DNA of 64,000 nt from Verrucomicrobiia bacterium (lineage in GTDB: Bacteria > Verrucomicrobiota > Verrucomicrobiia > Limisphaerales > UBA1319). Positions 47,359 through 54,648 of the stretch are shown piece by piece. Made by a program: the position numbers and the translations under genes. Numbering within the stretch: position 1 is the first letter of the stretch; every line of letters starts with the position of its first letter. The stretch covers positions 288,001-352,000 of the forward strand of contig OY760937.1 in the NCBI GenBank assembly GCA_963664225.1. The letters run 5' to 3'. The notes under the pieces were generated by a model. It had not been told where the DNA came from. It saw only the letters and a list, made by a program, of their open reading frames with translations, and made no database searches.

Positions 47359-48921
47359 ATGGCGACTGACATTTCCGGCAGGAATGGAGCGGGCCTCATG
47401 CGGAGGTTTTTGCGTTTTGGTTTTTGGTGTTTTGTTTGCGTGGGGGTGGCGATCGTGGTTTTGGTGGCCGCGTTCTATCTTCTGATGCAGCGGGCGCCTT
47501 CGTCCTACTCATTGTCAAGCCGCCCAATCCCACCCCCCAGCGCGGAGCCGTCGAGGGCATTGGGTGGGGGACTGGACGGCTTCGGTTCGCCTTATATCGG
47601 GCACACCGGGAGCTGGGACGGCAAGGGTGGGGGATTCGGCGGGTCTTCGAAAAATTCATCCATGGATTGCGAACGGGACATGGGCCTGCGCTGGACCTTC
47701 ATGCCGGTCTATTGGCGCGCCTTGGAGCCGGAGGGGCCTGTGGATCCCGCTCAAAATACGCCCGCCGCATGGCAGGAGTTGGACTCCTTTGTCATTGCCG
47801 CTCACGCCCGTGGTTTGAATGTCCTCATGCAGGCGCCCGTGGTGGGCGGTAACGCGGGGGGACCCCCTCGCTGGGCCGGGCGCCGCGAACCGGGCAAGTC
47901 CGCGCCAACGAACATGGTCGCGCTGGCCGATTTTGCGGGCAAACTCGCGCATCGGTATGCCCCCGGGGGAACGCTGGCCCAAGCCCAGGGCTGGGGCACG
48001 CGTTACGGGGTACGGGCCTGGGAAATGGATAACGAGCCGGAAGGTTACTTTACCAGTTGGACCGGGCAGTCTGGGGATTATGCGGAATTTGTCACGCTCG
48101 CTGCCGCGCGAATCAAAGCCGAGGATCCGCAGGCGGTGATCGTCGCGCCGGGCATGGCCTCTGGAAAAAACGGCCCGCCATGGCTCGAGGCCGCGCTCGA
48201 TGCCCAATCCAGGAAGGGTTCGCCCGCGTATCGCGCCGCCGCACGCGAATACTCCATTGGCCCGGTACTGGACGTGATCAGCATTCACAATTACGAGGGC
48301 CTGGATTCGGCATTCGGCGACGGTTCGCGCACGATTGGCCGGATCTTCGATGAAGTGCGCGCGGTGGTCGGACACTGGGAAGAGAGTCATCCCGATGCCT
48401 CCCGCGCCCGCAAGGAGGAATACTGGCACACGGAGGGCAATTACGATTTCTTGGGCATCCTGTCCTCGAGTCGGCGCGCGGCCTGGCGGTTCCAATTTTT
48501 CACACGCGCCTTTGCCTGCGGCATTCGGAAGGTCTGCGTGATGGACGCTTCCCCGCTGGAACAAGTCGCGGTGAAGGCCTACGTATCCACTTTGCAAAAT
48601 CCGTTTCCAATGATTTCGGCAGATCGTGAGGTCACTGTCCTTCAGGGTCAGCCTGTAGCCTTCAGGCATAGTGACGGTCCGAGGCCCAACGATGGGCGGG
48701 TATGGGTGATTTGGGCTGCCGCCAATACAGGGGATGCCGAGGTGGAGATTCCCGTTGTGCGTCCGCGCGTGACGGTGATTTCGGTGGACGGCTCCCAACA
48801 GACACTCGAAGCCAGCGGTGGACGCGTGCAACTGAACCTCAAAGGCGATGCGAAAATGGCGCCGGGTGTTCTGGTGGTGGACAGGATTGGGAAAAGGGCG
48901 GAATGGATGATGGATAATTGA
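47359..48921 (+). CDS. Membrane-anchored putative clan-A glycoside hydrolase (GH39/GH5-like)
   Basis: N-terminal TM helix, WEMDNEPE, ISIHNY, WHTEG. Confidence 0.6.
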   Translation: MATDISGRNGAGLMRRFLRFGFWCFVCVGVAIVVLVAAFYLLMQRAPSSYSLSSRPIPPPSAEPSRALGGGLDGFGSPYIGHTGSWDGKGGGFGGSSKNSSMDCERDMGLRWTFMPVYWRALEPEGPVDPAQNTPAAWQELDSFVIAAHARGLNVLMQAPVVGGNAGGPPRWAGRREPGKSAPTNMVALADFAGKLAHRYAPGGTLAQAQGWGTRYGVRAWEMDNEPEGYFTSWTGQSGDYAEFVTLAAARIKAEDPQAVIVAPGMASGKNGPPWLEAALDAQSRKGSPAYRAAAREYSIGPVLDVISIHNYEGLDSAFGDGSRTIGRIFDEVRAVVGHWEESHPDASRARKEEYWHTEGNYDFLGILSSSRRAAWRFQFFTRAFACGIRKVCVMDASPLEQVAVKAYVSTLQNPFPMISADREVTVLQGQPVAFRHSDGPRPNDGRVWVIWAAANTGDAEVEIPVVRPRVTVISVDGSQQTLEASGGRVQLNLKGDAKMAPGVLVVDRIGKRAEWMMDN

Positions 48922-48950
48922 AAATGGATTTGCGAAATACGCAAAAAGGG
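48901..48950 (+). repeat. ~50-bp direct repeat, copy A
   Basis: gaatggatgatggataattgaaaatggatttgcgaaatacgcaaaaaggg; near-identical copy at 52260-52308. Confidence 0.75.
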
Positions 48951-49000
48951 TGCGTCGCTCCCAGAGAAATTCCGACGCTGCAGACGGTGAATCAAATTCG

Positions 49001-49159
49001 CATCCGGCATTGCAGCACGATCCGAATAGGCCCGAGGACGTGCTGAAGGTCGATGTGGACGAAGACGGCAACGGCGGTGATGATACGGCCGATGCGCTAC
49101 GATACCTGATTGCGAGCAAGGGGAGGGCGATGGCGGTCAGGAAACTGATAGGGGTGTGA
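49001..49159 (+). pseudogene. C-terminal remnant of a phage terminase large subunit
   Basis: PALQHDPNRPEDVLKVD...GGDDTADALRYL resembles the terminase nuclease DxxxDAxRY motif; no N-terminal part upstream. Confidence 0.6.
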
Positions 49160-49256
49160 TCAATGCAAAGGTCGGCGAATGGAGGCTGCCGATGATGTTC
49201 GATTTGTTTCCTGCGCTGAACGGCTGGCTCCCGTTCGCTGGACCGTATGGTTCGGC
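49158..49256 (-). other. Degenerate attC site of cassette 2
   Basis: GCCGAAC-5nt-GGTCCAGCGAACGGGAG...CTCCATTCGCCGACC-5nt-ATTGATC; the R' GTT reads ATT. Confidence 0.6.
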
Positions 49257-49627
49257 CCTGTCTTGTGCTTCCAGAACTTGAAGCATCTCCAGTAGAATAT
49301 CTCGTTGTCGATCTTCACGCCCCACCAGTATGGTTTCAATTCGCAGATTGTCACGGGCAGATTATCATTCCTCGGACTAGTCGCCAGAACCCATGTGCGG
49401 TTTGTACGGTAAAAACTGCCGATGAAGTCACGGTACGATTCATCCTCGATTACAAGATCCAAGCTACCATGGGAAAAGTCCCAGCAGACATGGCCAATAG
49501 CCCCTACGCGGCCATCGTCTTCGTAGCGACCCACCGGTGACGGTGGTCCAAGCAACAACGCCAGCAGCGTGGCCGCAGCCAGTGACAGGGCTACGGCAAA
49601 TTTAACACGTTTGCGGTCTGAATACAC
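49160..49627 (-). CDS. Cassette-borne hypothetical exported/membrane protein (reads through its attC)
   Basis: GTG start lies 15 bp after GTTAGGC; N-terminal hydrophobic helix; the last ~30 codons are attC sequence. Confidence 0.6.
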   Translation of the reverse strand: MYSDRKRVKFAVALSLAAATLLALLLGPPSPVGRYEDDGRVGAIGHVCWDFSHGSLDLVIEDESYRDFIGSFYRTNRTWVLATSPRNDNLPVTICELKPYWWGVKIDNEIFYWRCFKFWKHKTGPNHTVQRTGASRSAQETNRTSSAASIRRPLH

Positions 49628-49642
49628 AGGTTGTGCGAATGC

Positions 49643-49740
49643 GCCTAACGCCAGAACTCACACACGCCGGGCCAATGACGTGAACCGGGAAGCGGAACTG
49701 CGACGGCCATCCGGCGTTGTGTGCAGTGATTTAGTTATGT
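49643..49740 (-). other. attC site of cassette 1
   Basis: R'' ACATAAC overlaps the stop codon. CT[G]CACAC[A]ACGCCGG pairs with CCGGCGTGTGTGAG, leaving two extrahelical bases. R' is GTTAGGC; length 98 bp. Confidence 0.85.
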
Positions 49741-50184
49741 CTTGTCCCCATTTGAAAAATAAACGTCCCACCAAACTCCAATGCCGAGTTTTCCAAGACT
49801 AAGCATCTGCTGCGGGTTCAAACAGGGACCACCCTGTCCGCTGGATAGCCAGTATGAAGTGATGTCGATTTTGCAGCCGCGGCGGTGAATCTCCTCAACC
49901 CCTGCGGTCCTTCCTTCCAGCGAAGTTGCGATCATGTCAATGTGGCGGCGCGTATCCTTCGAGTCGCATAAATTCTTTGTGGTGTTAAACCACCCATTGG
50001 CTTTTCGGCGGAGTCGTCCCTGAAAATGGCTCTCTCCCTTCCGAAAACTGTCCGTTGGTTCGATCTGCAAAAGTTTGGTGATCTCCTCTGGGGCAAGATC
50101 GTCTGAAAATACTCGAAGTGTCGAATATGTCTCGATACACGTCGGATACGAATCGTCGTAGTCAGTGTGATGCGCTTCAGACAT
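49735..50184 (-). CDS. DUF4279-like protein, gene cassette 1
   Basis: LAPEEITKLLQIEPT..RKGE and LGKLGIGVWWDVY; the ATG lies within the GTTATGT core site. Confidence 0.75.
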   Translation of the reverse strand: MSEAHHTDYDDSYPTCIETYSTLRVFSDDLAPEEITKLLQIEPTDSFRKGESHFQGRLRRKANGWFNTTKNLCDSKDTRRHIDMIATSLEGRTAGVEEIHRRGCKIDITSYWLSSGQGGPCLNPQQMLSLGKLGIGVWWDVYFSNGDKT

Positions 50185-50325
50185 AACTTTGATAATGCGA
50201 CCAGCAGTCCGTAGCTTGGACCGGTCTGAACCCATTCTTAATTCGTCGCATATACGGGGTTTAAACCCTTTACCACTGCTGGTCAACATCAGAGGTTCGC
50301 CCCCGCTGCCTGGCCGGTGCGACAG
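50181..50325 (-). promoter_or_regulatory. Pc-like promoter + attI-like site, copy 1
   Basis: TTGACC(50286-50281)-17 bp-TAAACC(50263-50258); ends GGTCGCATTATCAAAG/TTATGT. Confidence 0.7.
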
Positions 50326-50433
50326 CGTGAGAAAAGGCTGAGAGCTGAGGGCAGAGGGCAGTAGTCAGGCCAACACGCCATTTCCAATGGCATGGGCACG
50401 AGATTAATGACTCCATGAGGGAGTGATGTTGTT

Positions 50434-51765
50434 CTATTTCCCGGTGTTTTCGATCCGGTAGAGGTGCGTCTTTGTTCTCAGGTAAATGGCTTTATCCTGG
50501 ACGGCTGGTGAGGCAAGGGAGCCTGTATCGAGAATGTTGGTGGCCAGAAGTTCGTAGGTGCGGCCTGGTTTAACGACAAAGGTTTTTCCCTGCTGATTGC
50601 AGAAATAGATGCGGCCATCGGCGTATATTGGAGATGAAGCATAGGCGCCAGCGATGCGTTCGCGCCAGACCTGGACCCCGGTTTCGGGTTCCAGGCAGGT
50701 GATCATGCCATCATCGCTGATCATGTAGAGGAGGCCATTGACGAGGATGGGCGACGCGGTTTTTGAAACCATCTTGTCATATCTCCACGCGACGTGCGTT
50801 TGGGTCACGTCCCCCTGGCCATCTGTTTTAACAGCCAGCATTTCTGTTTTACCGCCAAATCCCGAGATGAATATGGCCAGACCTTTTGTGCACACAGCCA
50901 TGGAGGATGCCGACCAGGCATCGTATTGAACACGCCAGAGTTCCCTGCCGGTGCGTGGGTCGTAGGAGTAAGCCGCCTTGGCCCCGGGAATCAGCATCTG
51001 TAATTTGTCATCGGTCCTGATGATGATCGGCGTGCTGTGGGCCTTGCGGCGGTCCCCGTCGCGAGTCATCTGGTCCGTGGCATTCTCGTCATTCCAAGCC
51101 ACAGAACGGTCCGTTTTCCACACGGTTTTTCCGGTGGTTTTGTCCAGGGCCACCATGTACTGGAGATCCACGCCGTCCATGGTCAGGATGAGCAGATTTT
51201 CGAAAATAATGGGGGAGGATGCGGGTCCGCGGTAGTGGCGGCATTTCAGGTCGGTGCGTTCCCAGATGGTCTTGAAGCTGGTGGAATCGATGCAGGCAGT
51301 GCCGTAGCTCCCAAAATGAATATAAACGCGGCCAGCTTCGATGGCTGGGGAAGGGGTCGCATAGCTGTTGACGGAGTTACCCTGGGACTCCGGGTTGTCG
51401 CAATGAAACAGTTTGTTGGTGAAAAGGACCTTGCCAGAATCGGCATCCAGGCAGAAGACATAAAAATCATGGCCGTCCACCGGCGCGGTTGTCAGCCAGA
51501 CCTGCTTGTTCATGATGGCCGGGGTGGACCAGCCGCGGTCGGGGATTTCCGTTTTCCAACTGATATTATTGGTTTCACTCCAGGTCAATGGAAGGCCGAT
51601 GGCCGGAGCATTTTCCAATGCCAGAACATGGCCATCACCCGTGGGACCGCGGAATTGCGGCCAGTCGGCCTGCAATTGGGCGCCACCCGCCAGGGTCAGG
51701 AGCAGGAATGCCATACAACCGGCTGTGGAGTAACCGTTTGAAGGTTGAACTGTGTCGTTTTTCAT
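50434..51765 (-). CDS. Secreted PQQ-binding-like beta-propeller protein
   Basis: Signal peptide, ADWPQFRGP, NSYATPSP, ASPA...IYLRT. Confidence 0.88.
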   Translation of the reverse strand: MKNDTVQPSNGYSTAGCMAFLLLTLAGGAQLQADWPQFRGPTGDGHVLALENAPAIGLPLTWSETNNISWKTEIPDRGWSTPAIMNKQVWLTTAPVDGHDFYVFCLDADSGKVLFTNKLFHCDNPESQGNSVNSYATPSPAIEAGRVYIHFGSYGTACIDSTSFKTIWERTDLKCRHYRGPASSPIIFENLLILTMDGVDLQYMVALDKTTGKTVWKTDRSVAWNDENATDQMTRDGDRRKAHSTPIIIRTDDKLQMLIPGAKAAYSYDPRTGRELWRVQYDAWSASSMAVCTKGLAIFISGFGGKTEMLAVKTDGQGDVTQTHVAWRYDKMVSKTASPILVNGLLYMISDDGMITCLEPETGVQVWRERIAGAYASSPIYADGRIYFCNQQGKTFVVKPGRTYELLATNILDTGSLASPAVQDKAIYLRTKTHLYRIENTGK

Positions 51766-51802
51766 ATGTTAAAAAGTGATAGCGATGCCTGGCATGACGT
51801 GA

Positions 51803-51919
51803 TCAGCCGCCAAAGCCAACGTCTCCAAGCTGCGCGCCGTAAAAATGAATGACCAGCAAAACGAGAACGACAGGATTCGCCAGTGCAACCGCGCGCTTCA
51901 ATTGTGGCGTTGGATTCAT
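51803..51919 (-). pseudogene. 38-codon ORF directly after attI-like copy 2; probable truncated cassette gene
   Basis: MNPTPQLKRAVALANPVVLVLLVIHFYGAQLGDVGFGG begins 10 bp after G/TT; no attC follows. Confidence 0.45.
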
Positions 51920-51925
51920 GGTTTG

Positions 51926-52075
51926 CTCGAACTTTGCTTATGCGACCAGTGGTCCAGATCTTGGACCGGGCAGAATCCATTAATAAATCGTCGCATGTAC
52001 GAGGTTTAGAGCCTTTTCCACTGGGGGTCAACACCAGAGGTTCTGTCCGCCCCGCTGCCTGGCCGGTTCGAGATC
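51926..52075 (-). promoter_or_regulatory. Pc-like promoter + attI-like site, copy 2
   Basis: TTGACC(52031-52026)-17 bp-TAAACC(52008-52003); ends GGTCGCATAAGCAAAG/TTCGAG. Similarity to copy 1 stops at the GTT. Confidence 0.7.
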
Positions 52076-52259
52076 GTGATGGGAGAAGAGGCCAGAGGGC
52101 AGAATGGATAATGGCAAGAATGGAAAATGGATAATGGAATAAAAAAGGCATTGACGCACGTCATCATAATGACCTTATTCCAAAGGAGCAGGGGTGTTGC
52201 GAGCGCCGGATTTATTGAAAGGTTTGAGAGGTGGTGCCGCGTGGGGTTGGCGCAAGGAG

Positions 52260-52308
52260 GAATGGATGATGGATTTGACAATGGATTTGCGAAATATGCG
52301 AAAAAGGG
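52260..52308 (+). repeat. ~50-bp direct repeat, copy B
   Basis: gaatggatgatggatttgacaatggatttgcgaaatatgcgaaaaaggg. Confidence 0.75.
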
Positions 52309-52407
52309 CGGGGTCTCACGCGAAGGCGCGAAGAGAAAAGTGATTGTTAATATGGATAAACAACTTGGGACTTCCTGAGAGTGGGGCTTGGGCGTAGGCT
52401 GTCAGGC

Positions 52408-53268
52408 ATGGCCATCATTGGCAAACGCAATATTTTGACGGTTGTCCGGGATTCGACTCCGGGCATCTATCTGGACGACGGTGAGAATGGGGAGATTCTC
52501 CTGCCCAATCGCTATGTGCCGCGCGGGCTGGGAAGGGGCGACCGGATCGAGGTGTTCGTTTACCGCGATTCGGAGGATCGATTGGTGGCGACGACTGAAA
52601 CACCCCTCGCTGAGGTGGGGGAGGTGGCCACGTTGAAGGTGATCAGTGTCAACCGACAGGTGGGCGCTTTTCTGGACTGGGGGCTGGCCAAGGATTTGCT
52701 GCTGCCTTTCCGGGAGCAGACCGGTCCGGTGCGCGTGGGTCAGGAGGTGCTGGTGCGGGTTTACGTGGACGAAAACACCCATCGCATTGTGGCCACGATG
52801 AAGCTGGACAAGTATTCAAAGATCGAGCCGCCCTGTTACCGGACCGGTGAGCGGGTGGAGTTTGTGATCGGTGAGAAGACGCCGTTGGGCTACAAGGTCG
52901 TGGTGGAAGGTCTGCATTCCGGGATGCTCTACAACGATGGCATTCATGTTCCGGTGAAGATCGGGCAGAAACTCAAGGGTTTTGTGCGGGCGATCCGGCC
53001 CGACGGTAAAATTGATTTGAGTCTCGACCAGGCGGGTTATCAGCGCGTCGTGCCGCTGGCCCTGCGAATTGTTCAGGCGCTCGAACGGGGCGGAGGCAAG
53101 CTGGGCTTCGACGACGACAGCGCGCCTGATGATATTCGGAAGGAATTTGGCGCGAGCAAGAAGGCCTTCAAACAAGCCCTGGGCACGCTTTACAAAACCC
53201 GGCGCATCCGTTTTACAAATCCGGGCATCGAGTTGCTGGATAATACGACCTGGTCGCCGGGGAGTTAG
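52408..53268 (+). CDS. cvfB: CvfB/YitL family S1 RNA-binding protein
   Basis: VFVYRDSEDRLVATT, GAFLDWGLAKDLLLP, SKKAFKQALGTLYK. Confidence 0.88.
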   Translation: MAIIGKRNILTVVRDSTPGIYLDDGENGEILLPNRYVPRGLGRGDRIEVFVYRDSEDRLVATTETPLAEVGEVATLKVISVNRQVGAFLDWGLAKDLLLPFREQTGPVRVGQEVLVRVYVDENTHRIVATMKLDKYSKIEPPCYRTGERVEFVIGEKTPLGYKVVVEGLHSGMLYNDGIHVPVKIGQKLKGFVRAIRPDGKIDLSLDQAGYQRVVPLALRIVQALERGGGKLGFDDDSAPDDIRKEFGASKKAFKQALGTLYKTRRIRFTNPGIELLDNTTWSPGS

Positions 53269-53294
53269 CCAGGCGACCACATGTCGGCCGAAAA

Positions 53295-54527
53295 TTACGG
53301 TTTGGCGCCGATGCAGTAAAGGTTGGCGAAGGTTCGCAGGAAGATCTGGCCGTCGCAGATCGCAGGAGAGGCGAAGGTTTTTTCGCCAAGTTCGTTGCGG
53401 GCAGCCAATTCGAATTTGGGCCCCGCCTTGACGACGGTCATCACGCCTTCGTCGTTCAGGAAATAGACCAAGCCATTGGCGACGACCGGCGAGGCGTGAT
53501 AAGCGCCTGTTTTTTCCTTCCACAGGAGATTGCCCGTCGCGGCGTCGAGACAGCAGGTGTCCCGGCCTGAGAAACTGCAGGTGAAGAACCAATCGCCGAC
53601 GCTGATGGGAGAGGGGACGTAGGGGGCGTTGGGTTCGTTTTTCCACGCAACTTTGGTGGCGGTGATGTCGCCTTCGCCGTCCGGTTTGATGGCGACGAGG
53701 ACTTTCTTGGGCCAACTGCTGCTGGTCAGGACCAGGCCGGTTTTTTCGTTATAGGCGGCTGTGACGACGGAGTCTTCCGAATGACCTTTGAACACCCACA
53801 GCTTGCGGCCGGTTTTGGGATCGTAGCTGGTCACCGTTTGATTGCCCGCAACGACCATTTGCATGCGTCCGGCCATTTCGCGGATCAGCGGGGGGCTGTA
53901 GCTCTGGGTGGGATTTTCCGCCTGGACCTTCCAGGCCACTTTCCCATCCGCCTGGTTCAGCGCGACGATGAAGTTTTCGCCCTTGCTGTAGCAGACGATG
54001 ATGACCTTGTCCTCGAACAGGGTGGGTGTGTGGCTGAAACCGTGCTGGCTGTAGAAGAGGCCGGGACGCGCCTGCCAGACCTGTTTACCGGAAAAATCGT
54101 TCGCGGTCACGACGACATTGGAGACGTCCAGGAATGTCGTATAAAGCAATTTGCCATCGGTGGCCACGCTGGAGGATGCGTAGCTGTTTTCCGAATTTTT
54201 GGCTTCCAGCGGGGCTTTCAACACGGTTTGCTGCCAGAGCAACTTGCCGCTCTTGCGGTCAAAGCTTAACAAAGCGCGCTCCTGGGTTTCTTTGAAGGCG
54301 GTGGTCAGGAAAATGCGGTCGTCCCAGATGATCGGGGAGGAATGGCCTTCGCCGGGAACGGCGGTTTTCCACACCACATTGCTGGTGGCGCTCCATAGAA
54401 CTGGAGGATTTTTCTCGAGGCTGGTGCCGTCACCGCGCGGTCCGCGCCAGACAGGCCAGTTTTCCGCATGAGCGAATGCAGCCGAGGAGGCGAGCAATCC
54501 TGCAAAAAGTAATTGTCGTAAAATCAT
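53295..54527 (-). CDS. Secreted PQQ-binding-like beta-propeller protein
   Basis: AENWPVWRGP, GHSSPI, ASPA...IFLRT. Confidence 0.88.
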   Translation of the reverse strand: MILRQLLFAGLLASSAAFAHAENWPVWRGPRGDGTSLEKNPPVLWSATSNVVWKTAVPGEGHSSPIIWDDRIFLTTAFKETQERALLSFDRKSGKLLWQQTVLKAPLEAKNSENSYASSSVATDGKLLYTTFLDVSNVVVTANDFSGKQVWQARPGLFYSQHGFSHTPTLFEDKVIIVCYSKGENFIVALNQADGKVAWKVQAENPTQSYSPPLIREMAGRMQMVVAGNQTVTSYDPKTGRKLWVFKGHSEDSVVTAAYNEKTGLVLTSSSWPKKVLVAIKPDGEGDITATKVAWKNEPNAPYVPSPISVGDWFFTCSFSGRDTCCLDAATGNLLWKEKTGAYHASPVVANGLVYFLNDEGVMTVVKAGPKFELAARNELGEKTFASPAICDGQIFLRTFANLYCIGAKP

Positions 54528-54648
54528 GATGCCAAAGGCTAGACCAAACAGGACGCAACTCAATCCTGAATAACATCAAAACGAATCGGAAATGGGGAAA
54601 CGTATTTCCTTTTCATCGGCTTTCCAATAGGCCAGTTCTAGTGGAGTC

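Follow-up and report, generated by a model that had tools for sequence, protein, structure and literature searches.

The DNA described here is a stretch of 64,000 nucleotides (nt), called the window below (G000:C1:288001-352000), from a Verrucomicrobiia bacterium whose genome, G000, forms one contig of 5.78 Mb. The minus strand of the window carries, with a spacing of 1745, two copies (A and B) of a 114-nt unit that we call the head, which lies directly in front of small genes and looks like the attachment site and promoter of an integron. The features of the locus are listed in window coordinates, and the slash in G/TT marks the cassette junction.

50185..50298, minus strand: head copy A, 114-nt core, ends CAAAG/TT, with its GTT at 50187-50185
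50299..50361, minus strand: upstream extension of copy A, type I (CCCTCNG repeats, ...CCGGCCAGGCAGCGG...), common to 8 other copies
50281..50286, minus strand: -35-like hexamer TTGACC of copy A, invariant in 11/11 copies
50258..50263, minus strand: -10-like hexamer TAAACC of copy A, 3/6 to TATAAT, TAAA invariant
51930..52043, minus strand: head copy B, 114-nt core, with its GTT at 51932-51930
52044..52102, minus strand: upstream extension of copy B, type I
49735..50184, minus strand: cassette 1 behind A, open reading frame (ORF) of 149 aa with DUF4279, begins TTATGT directly after the G of the head
49643..49740, minus strand: attC site of cassette 1, R'' ACATAAC ... R' GTTAGGC, 94.6 bits, R'' overlapping the stop codon
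49160..49627, minus strand: cassette 2, ORF of 155 aa without a Pfam family
49158..49256, minus strand: attC site of cassette 2, degenerate, R'' GCCGAAC, R' ATTGATC, 15.6 bits
48950..49157, minus strand: Z, a sequence that closes arrays at three loci, begins TTGATCACACC at the last junction
51803..51919, minus strand: 38-codon hydrophobic ORF behind copy B, 10 nt after the head
50434..51765, minus strand: PQQ/BamB-type beta-propeller gene between B and A, with no attC after it

A preliminary description of this DNA had pointed to two diverged copies, and a repeat search of the window confirmed them: the cores at 50185-50298 and 51930-52043 are 82% identical, two further matching blocks lie upstream of the core, and the likeness runs for ~60 nt in that direction (77% identity over ~177 nt). 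As had also been stated, both copies read TTGACC, 17 nt, TAAACC, both contain ATGCGAC ... GTCGCAT, and the likeness stops at a GTT, the common 3' end being GGTCGCAT(T/A)A(T/G)CAAAGTT, i.e. ...GGTCGCATnAnCAAAGTT. Equally correct was the statement that a different ORF follows each copy, since the ATG of the DUF4279 ORF stands directly after the GTT of A and the 38-codon ORF, followed by the PQQ-propeller gene, starts 10 nt after that of B. What had been regarded as a duplicated pair is actually part of a family of 13 + 3 copies.

The head unit occurs at 13 loci of the genome, 11 full and 2 decayed, a number far in excess of chance. Each full head is exactly 114 nt long and free of insertions or deletions, with a mean column identity of 88%. 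The loci, named by position in the genome, are 222k; 338k and 340k (the window); 846k and 847k; 1736k; 1754k, 1756k and 1757k; and four within 1957k-1962k, so that the heads are clustered, and inside each cluster they have the same orientation. Upstream of the core, the type I extension is found at 9 loci (7 of the 11 full heads and both decayed ones), a type II extension in 2 copies (c222k and c1959.1k), and no extension in 2 copies. A second family, head2, has three copies (G000 4881737-4881960, minus strand; 1679532-1679753, plus strand; 4119665-4119890, minus strand), two of which lead attC arrays, and it has only the last ~40 nt in common with the first family, head1 (...ACCGCTCGTCGCATAATCAAAG/TT). 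A resemblance also exists between the type II extension and the 5' part of head2, and the heads appear to be modular or chimeric. When the head was compared with 40 related genomes by BLAST no copy was found, and searching species-representative genomes with the head pattern gave 42 single matches in unrelated phyla, about the chance level for 18 fixed bases by our own arithmetic; a fuzzy search for ATTGGCCCGGCGT with 2 mismatches likewise gave 296 matches that were mostly chance. The unit is present on three metagenome contigs, all of one sample. Protein coding by the head was considered and rejected: the frame is open, but codon positions 1-2 vary and position 3 is constant, and the frame continues into the next ORF in some copies only. 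Another abundant repeat, recognisable by spurious ORFs reading ...IIPKGLNHSDRGCEERATPG..., is often seen upstream of heads; at G000 1734251-1736490 its copies stand in tandem, repeating every ~296 bp, and it also occurs, for example, at 619-622k and 4443-4444k.

The ORFs behind the heads are short and co-oriented. Most of the 24 have no Pfam family, no two are alike, and the only ones with duplicates elsewhere in the genome are the three ORFs of 1736k, which are repeated in the twin segment at 1756k. Many of their stop codons are directly followed by an imperfect palindrome, 93-108 nt long. A hidden Markov model built from six of these palindromes, all from G000, matches arrays that adjoin, and are divergent from, the integron integrase gene intI in the relatives G139, G128, G124, G101 and G084, five elements standing in a row beside intI in G139. 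We aligned 20 sites, 7 from G000 and 13 from relatives, and obtained a common layout of R'' closing with AAC, 5 nt of spacer, L'' carrying extra bases that stay unpaired, a centre that varies, L', a second spacer of 6-7 nt and R' GTTRRRY, in which AAC and GTT are nearly invariant; 93.4% of the cells are paired and 14 of the 19 pairs have compensatory changes, values that 0 of 500 shuffles reached. Because this is the textbook attC layout, with such pairing and compensation, the palindromes are attC sites. They fall into length classes of 93, 98-100 and 108 nt, and a covariance model of the 20 sites (R1) finds at least 32 places in the genome at E <= 10, with 150 of 1929 candidates scored. The window holds two attC sites, 49643-49740 and 49158-49256 (the latter with E 0.0083 in a 3.6-kb search), with no integrase nearby, which is the composition of an attC cluster without an integron integrase (CALIN), a call that rests on our own model R1 and not on IntegronFinder. 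There are also integrase-less attC arrays in which the 1.8 kb upstream of the first attC detected contain neither head1 nor head2, at G000 5221156-5221713, 2225159-2227046, 4933876-4937372, 4158155-4159935, 2833417-2834073 and other places.

The cassettes (ORF + attC) begin exactly at the G/TT of the head. Fourteen full heads are counted here, 11 of head1 and 3 of head2; the likeness among the 11 head1 copies ends at GTT, and GTT stands at the junction in 10 of the 14. At least one co-oriented attC lies within 2 kb of nine (c222k, c338k, which is copy A, c846k, c1736k, c1756k, c1754k, c1959.1k, h2_1679k and h2_4119k), and a random place would have one within this distance in well under 1% of cases, about 0.7% as estimated from the density of matches. 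In a cassette, the right half of its own R' supplies the six bases that follow the upstream G, and these should therefore be complementary to its own R''. In copy A the cassette start TTATGT is 6/6 complementary to R'' ACATAAC of its own attC, and the 23 cassettes of 10 head-led arrays average 4.78/6, as against 3.78 +/- 0.16 after shuffling, with 0 of 2000 shuffles reaching it; the first cassettes behind the 10 heads have 6, 6, 5, 5, 5, 4, 4, 4, 3 and 2 of 6. Metagenome contigs of four runs gave many partial matches to 47500-54500, which come from repeat copies elsewhere, and loose contig ends at 50185 agree with the junction, but these joints are not assignable to the window locus.

Content next to the head differs between G000 and a related contig and between arrays of G000. 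On the metagenome contig L097, from a relative ~93% identical in the shared parts, the head is followed by three ORFs that are absent from G000 and that each end in an attC (38.4, 31.9 and 32.8 bits), after which the contig rejoins G000 at the R' region of the attC preceding a 138-aa ORF; G000 has two other cassettes (81 aa and 104 aa) at the equivalent place. New content beside the head and shared content farther off is what insertion at an attI predicts. Within G000, the arrays at 338k (window), 846k and 1754k have the same distal end, Z, which begins TTG(A/C)TCACACC at the last junction, and different cassettes before it. Besides the window copy (48950-49157), Z is found at G000 844982-845141 and 1752870-1752970, with fragments at 1756727-1756801, 1972565-1972927 and 5188317-5188508; a 69-codon ORF opposite Z has no Pfam family, and an impression of likeness to a terminase C-terminus found no support. 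The segments 1736581-1738076 and 1756606-1755112, at 97.5% identity, contain a head plus its downstream genes, so segmental duplication is another way in which heads spread, taking their genes along.

Copy B differs from copy A in that R1 found no attC match behind it. With the PQQ gene at 50434-51765 as query, tblastn gives 18 places in the genome, the gene itself being one of them, and its GC content at codon position 3 is near that of the core genes around it. In our reading this gene is resident, and copy B is a head that is unloaded or has decayed. A paralogous PQQ/BamB-type beta-propeller gene is seen at 53295-54563, 1.5 kb away from it. Several arrays have truncated, degenerate or weak attC sites, and the capture system looks inactive and eroding in G000. 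The whole island of copy B, PQQ gene, copy A, two cassettes and Z is flanked by a ~64-nt direct repeat (window 48885-48950 and 52244-52307, parts 66-88% identical), the left copy of which takes in the 3' end of a 520-aa ORF at 47359-48921; this repeat may be a scar of the island's origin.

By eye, the end of the head resembles known attI sites. In the class 1 integron of an E. coli plasmid (locus L129) attI1 ends ...GCAGTCGCCCTAAAACAAAG/TTAACC, as the preliminary description had stated, and its cassette promoter Pc reads TGGACA-17-TAAGCT. The attI regions beside intI of relatives end ...GAATATCTG/TTAGG, ...CATTATCTG/TTAGGCC and ...GCTAATCTAAAGG/TTAGGC, one of these ends reading ...ATATCTG/TTAGG, and they look by eye like the end of head c1957k (...GCATAATCAAAG/TTAGGC). 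The head's GCATAATC-AAA-G/TTAGGC can be set beside GCTAATC-TAAAG-G/TTAGGC of G059 and G043 and CCCTAAAAC-AAA-G/TT of attI1, and an A/T-rich box ending in C, 2-6 nt before G/TT, is visible by eye in the heads, in attI1 and in the attI of relatives. Compared as a whole with such platforms of attI and Pc (attI1 in L129; attI of G059, G043, G084, G124 and G139), the head likewise stands at the start of an array, has its putative crossover at G/TT followed by the cassette's TTRRRY, carries a TTGAC-type -35-like hexamer located 55-100 nt upstream and pointing into the cassettes, and ends ...CAAAG/TT, identical to attI1 over 7 nt. It differs in having no adjacent intI, in being present in 13 + 3 copies per genome instead of one, in lying also inside clusters behind other cassettes, and in showing no profile- or BLAST-level similarity to any attI examined.

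No intI was found in the genome, the best match to TIGR02249 being 82 bits against a cut-off of 265, and tblastn with nine IntI proteins of relatives found only generic tyrosine recombinases, none of them near heads. Among the 201 genomes of the order, 68 have an intI above the TIGR02249 cut-off, several with 2-5 matches, and one relative's IntI shares ~55% identity with IntI1. G001, a genome of the same genus, contains a degraded intI (221 bits), an attI of its own that is single-copy, and a cassette whose attC belongs to the palindrome family.

The heads are probably attI/promoter-type sites without an integrase of their own, leading arrays of different cassettes. They behave as attI-type docking sites of CALIN-type arrays because the junction lies at G/TT, because they are not attC sites, and because intI is absent here yet present in 68 of 201 genomes of the order. 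On this reading the head would act as a double-stranded docking site with the crossover in its last ~20 nt (GTCGCATAATC-AAA-G/TT), and among the ~95 conserved nt before the docking end would be a sigma-70-like TTGACC-17-TAAAYC, directed towards the cassettes. An integron integrase that is no longer present (lost, or formerly supplied from elsewhere) may have inserted circular cassettes by attI x attC recombination, and the heads may have multiplied by segmental duplication and perhaps also by riding inside composite cassettes. The embedded promoter is predicted to transcribe the first genes, and copy A would be the head of a two-cassette array.

As for this promoter, TTGACC and TAAA are invariant in all 11 heads, and the -10, TAAACC or TAAATC, has 3/6 of TATAAT and lacks its final T. 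A promoter scan of the head does not list TTGACC-17-TAAAYC among its promoters, since position 6 of the -10 is not T. The best score within the head, 8-9/12, is similar to the best in the attI regions of relatives, and the promoter activity of the head is putative.

Several observations speak against the docking-site reading. No intI adjoins any head or exists in the genome, and the defining neighbour of an attI is therefore missing. In both relatives tested, G001 and G139, the attI region is single-copy, and the multiplication of the head is therefore special to the G000 lineage. Five of the 14 full heads (copy B, c1957k, c1959.8k, c1962k and h2_4881k) have no attC behind them, and in the metagenome relative L095 (3285-3460) a head lies directly against the 3' end of miaA, where there is no ORF for it to serve. 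The likeness between head and attI is a short motif judged by eye: with a profile of the head, nhmmer gave a best E of 1.1 over 18 intI loci of relatives, and BLAST of its last 65 nt against 72,556 plasmids gave no integron match, class 1 attI1 included. The promoter match is weak: TTGACC-17-TAAAYC fits the consensus in 8 of 12 positions, and in some copies TTAAAT at a spacing of 16 nt raises this to 9 of 12. In addition, 7 of the 20 attC sequences in R1 are from G000, so the R1 scores of its own sites are circular. At the place in G000 that matches the L095 head (3751100-3753415) there is a 204-codon ORF with a weak attC match (25 bits), and 0.5 kb beyond this match a 393-aa tyrosine recombinase that is not IntI.

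Two other explanations can be considered for a repeat placed in this way. The head might be a dispersed promoter-bearing repeat, either one like a miniature inverted-repeat transposable element (MITE) or a duplicated regulatory module, that is unrelated to recombination and gathers in cassette-rich variable islands. Such a repeat would account for the 5 of 14 full heads without attC, copy B included, for the conservation of ~95 nt upstream of the junction, beyond the need of a simple attI site, and for the invariant TTGACC and TAAA; the 1736k/1756k duplication carries a head with its downstream genes, and the genome is rich in other repeats beside heads. We regard it as unlikely, however, because the 3' edge is sharp at G/TT and is followed by the cassette's own R' half, because the two head families have only the junction-proximal ~40 nt in common, and because an attC lies within 2 kb of 9 of the 14 heads, as against an estimated 0.7% or so at random places. 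The 5' edge is ragged, the sequence upstream being of three kinds, no partner ends turned up when the 3' end was sought in inverted orientation by fuzzy matching, and the promoter match is just 8-9/12. Alternatively, the head might be a repeat that mimics attI and served as a secondary target, of the "attG" type, for a visiting integrase on a mobile element, giving many small CALINs. Integrases can insert cassettes outside attI, and small CALINs may arise so, as outlined by Loot et al. (10.1101/2022.09.11.507474); no relic of intI lies near any head, and the same-genus relative has a different, single-copy attI. Sites of the attG type, in that account, share GWT only, whereas ~40 nt are kept between the two head families, and several cassettes are stacked behind one head, as at an attI. 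This explanation seems distinctly unlikely to us, and in practice it differs from the docking-site reading by origin only.

The remaining possibilities concern the structure of the head. If it were itself the attC of an ORF-less, promoter-carrying cassette, a register could be drawn as GAAC (R''-like), 5 nt, ATGTTGACC ... GGTCGCAT, 7 nt, GTT, the 5' arm having one base more; AAC is at the R'' place in 7 of 11 copies, and c1957k lies 54 nt behind another attC. Yet R1 with its filters off has no match on either head, at most a 3.2-bit fragment, and the drawn pairing is 76.7% paired, with a double change in 1 pair, which shuffles equal. Changes break pairs without compensation, the central part is conserved in sequence and not in structure, and the z-scores of DNA folding are modest (+0.7 to -4.1), as are those of RNA folding, which makes an attC highly unlikely; that the head is kept as sequence agrees with a site recognised in double-stranded form. 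A structured 5'-leader RNA, riboswitch-like or a small RNA, is scarcely credible. A 7-bp stem, ATGCGAC/GTCGCAT, does enclose two small hairpins in most copies, but none of the 17 pairs predicted by RNAalifold from 11 copies covaries, changes break pairs uncompensated, Rfam has 0 matches at gathering score in the 64-kb window, and the element was not found in 40 relatives.

A CALIN comprises two or more attC sites along with cassettes, without an integrase in the vicinity, as set out in Cury 2016 (PMC4889954). By this definition the G000 arrays are CALINs, and they are decaying. Like about half of the CALINs in that account, they belong to a genome without any intI; unlike them, being defined by attC alone, many G000 arrays begin with a repeated head that is not an attC. 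A precedent for cassettes entering at a distance from a linked attI is given by attG sites, which are described by Loot et al. (bioRxiv 10.1101/2022.09.11.507474) as diverse and with little beyond GWT in common. The formation of CALINs and SALINs at attG sites, as outlined in the same source, resembles the situation in G000 in that cassettes lie away from the integrase-linked attI and may be expressed via a nearby promoter; the heads differ in being a conserved 114-nt sequence family. The heads also recall the homogeneous attC families of sedentary chromosomal integrons, being ~100-nt repeats between co-oriented small ORFs and ending in GTT, but they fail the attC model and show no covariation, and the true attC of the lineage is another sequence. 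Among the papers listed by a full-text search on multiple, second, orphan or attI-like sites and on the lack of an integrase, the titles and abstract openings contained no description of repeated attI-type heads.

The preliminary description had interpreted the two copies as solo Pc-attI platforms, loaded independently by an integrase acting in trans, and had set such a distributed architecture against a simple decayed CALIN. The platforms are supported as far as the cassette junction, the attC arrays and the distinction from attC are concerned, and less so by copy B, which has no cassette, and by a promoter of 8-9/12. In favour of independent loading, the genes behind the copies are unrelated, the three arrays that share Z differ near the head, and a relative has other cassettes. 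The absence of intI beside either copy was correctly noted, and it extends to the whole genome, where no integrase for the proposed role in trans was found, in cis or elsewhere. A decayed CALIN fits the present state as well, because several attC sites are degenerate or truncated. The genome-wide search that it had proposed did give different first cassettes behind different copies, although no copy sits beside intI and none was found in the 40 relatives; in all 11 head1 copies the similarity ends at GTT, as had been anticipated, and cassettes were expected behind every copy, whereas 5 of the 14 full heads have no attC. We put forward only tentatively the wider idea of a "distributed integron", in which one lineage-specific attI/promoter head at about sixteen chromosomal places was loaded separately at each by an unlinked, now absent integrase. 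Under this idea, the minimal docking site would be the last ~40 nt common to the two head families.

The usual picture of an integron has a single array served by one integrase, one attI and one promoter, and CALINs are treated as debris or as secondary-site insertions; attI sites are, to our knowledge, known for very few integron classes. IntegronFinder, as outlined in Cury 2016 (PMC4889954), annotates the attI of classes 1-3 only, by exact match. In G000, many arrays of one genome begin with the same conserved unit, which is not an attC, exactly at the cassette junction. If the head works as a docking site, the genome would have many entry points for cassettes, each with its own promoter, several "first cassettes" could be expressed at once, and the origin of at least some CALINs would be explained. 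If the distributed integron is true, neither the capture of cassettes nor their expression in first position would depend on one intI-attI platform. The head also offers a concrete 40-nt attI candidate for an environmental integron class.

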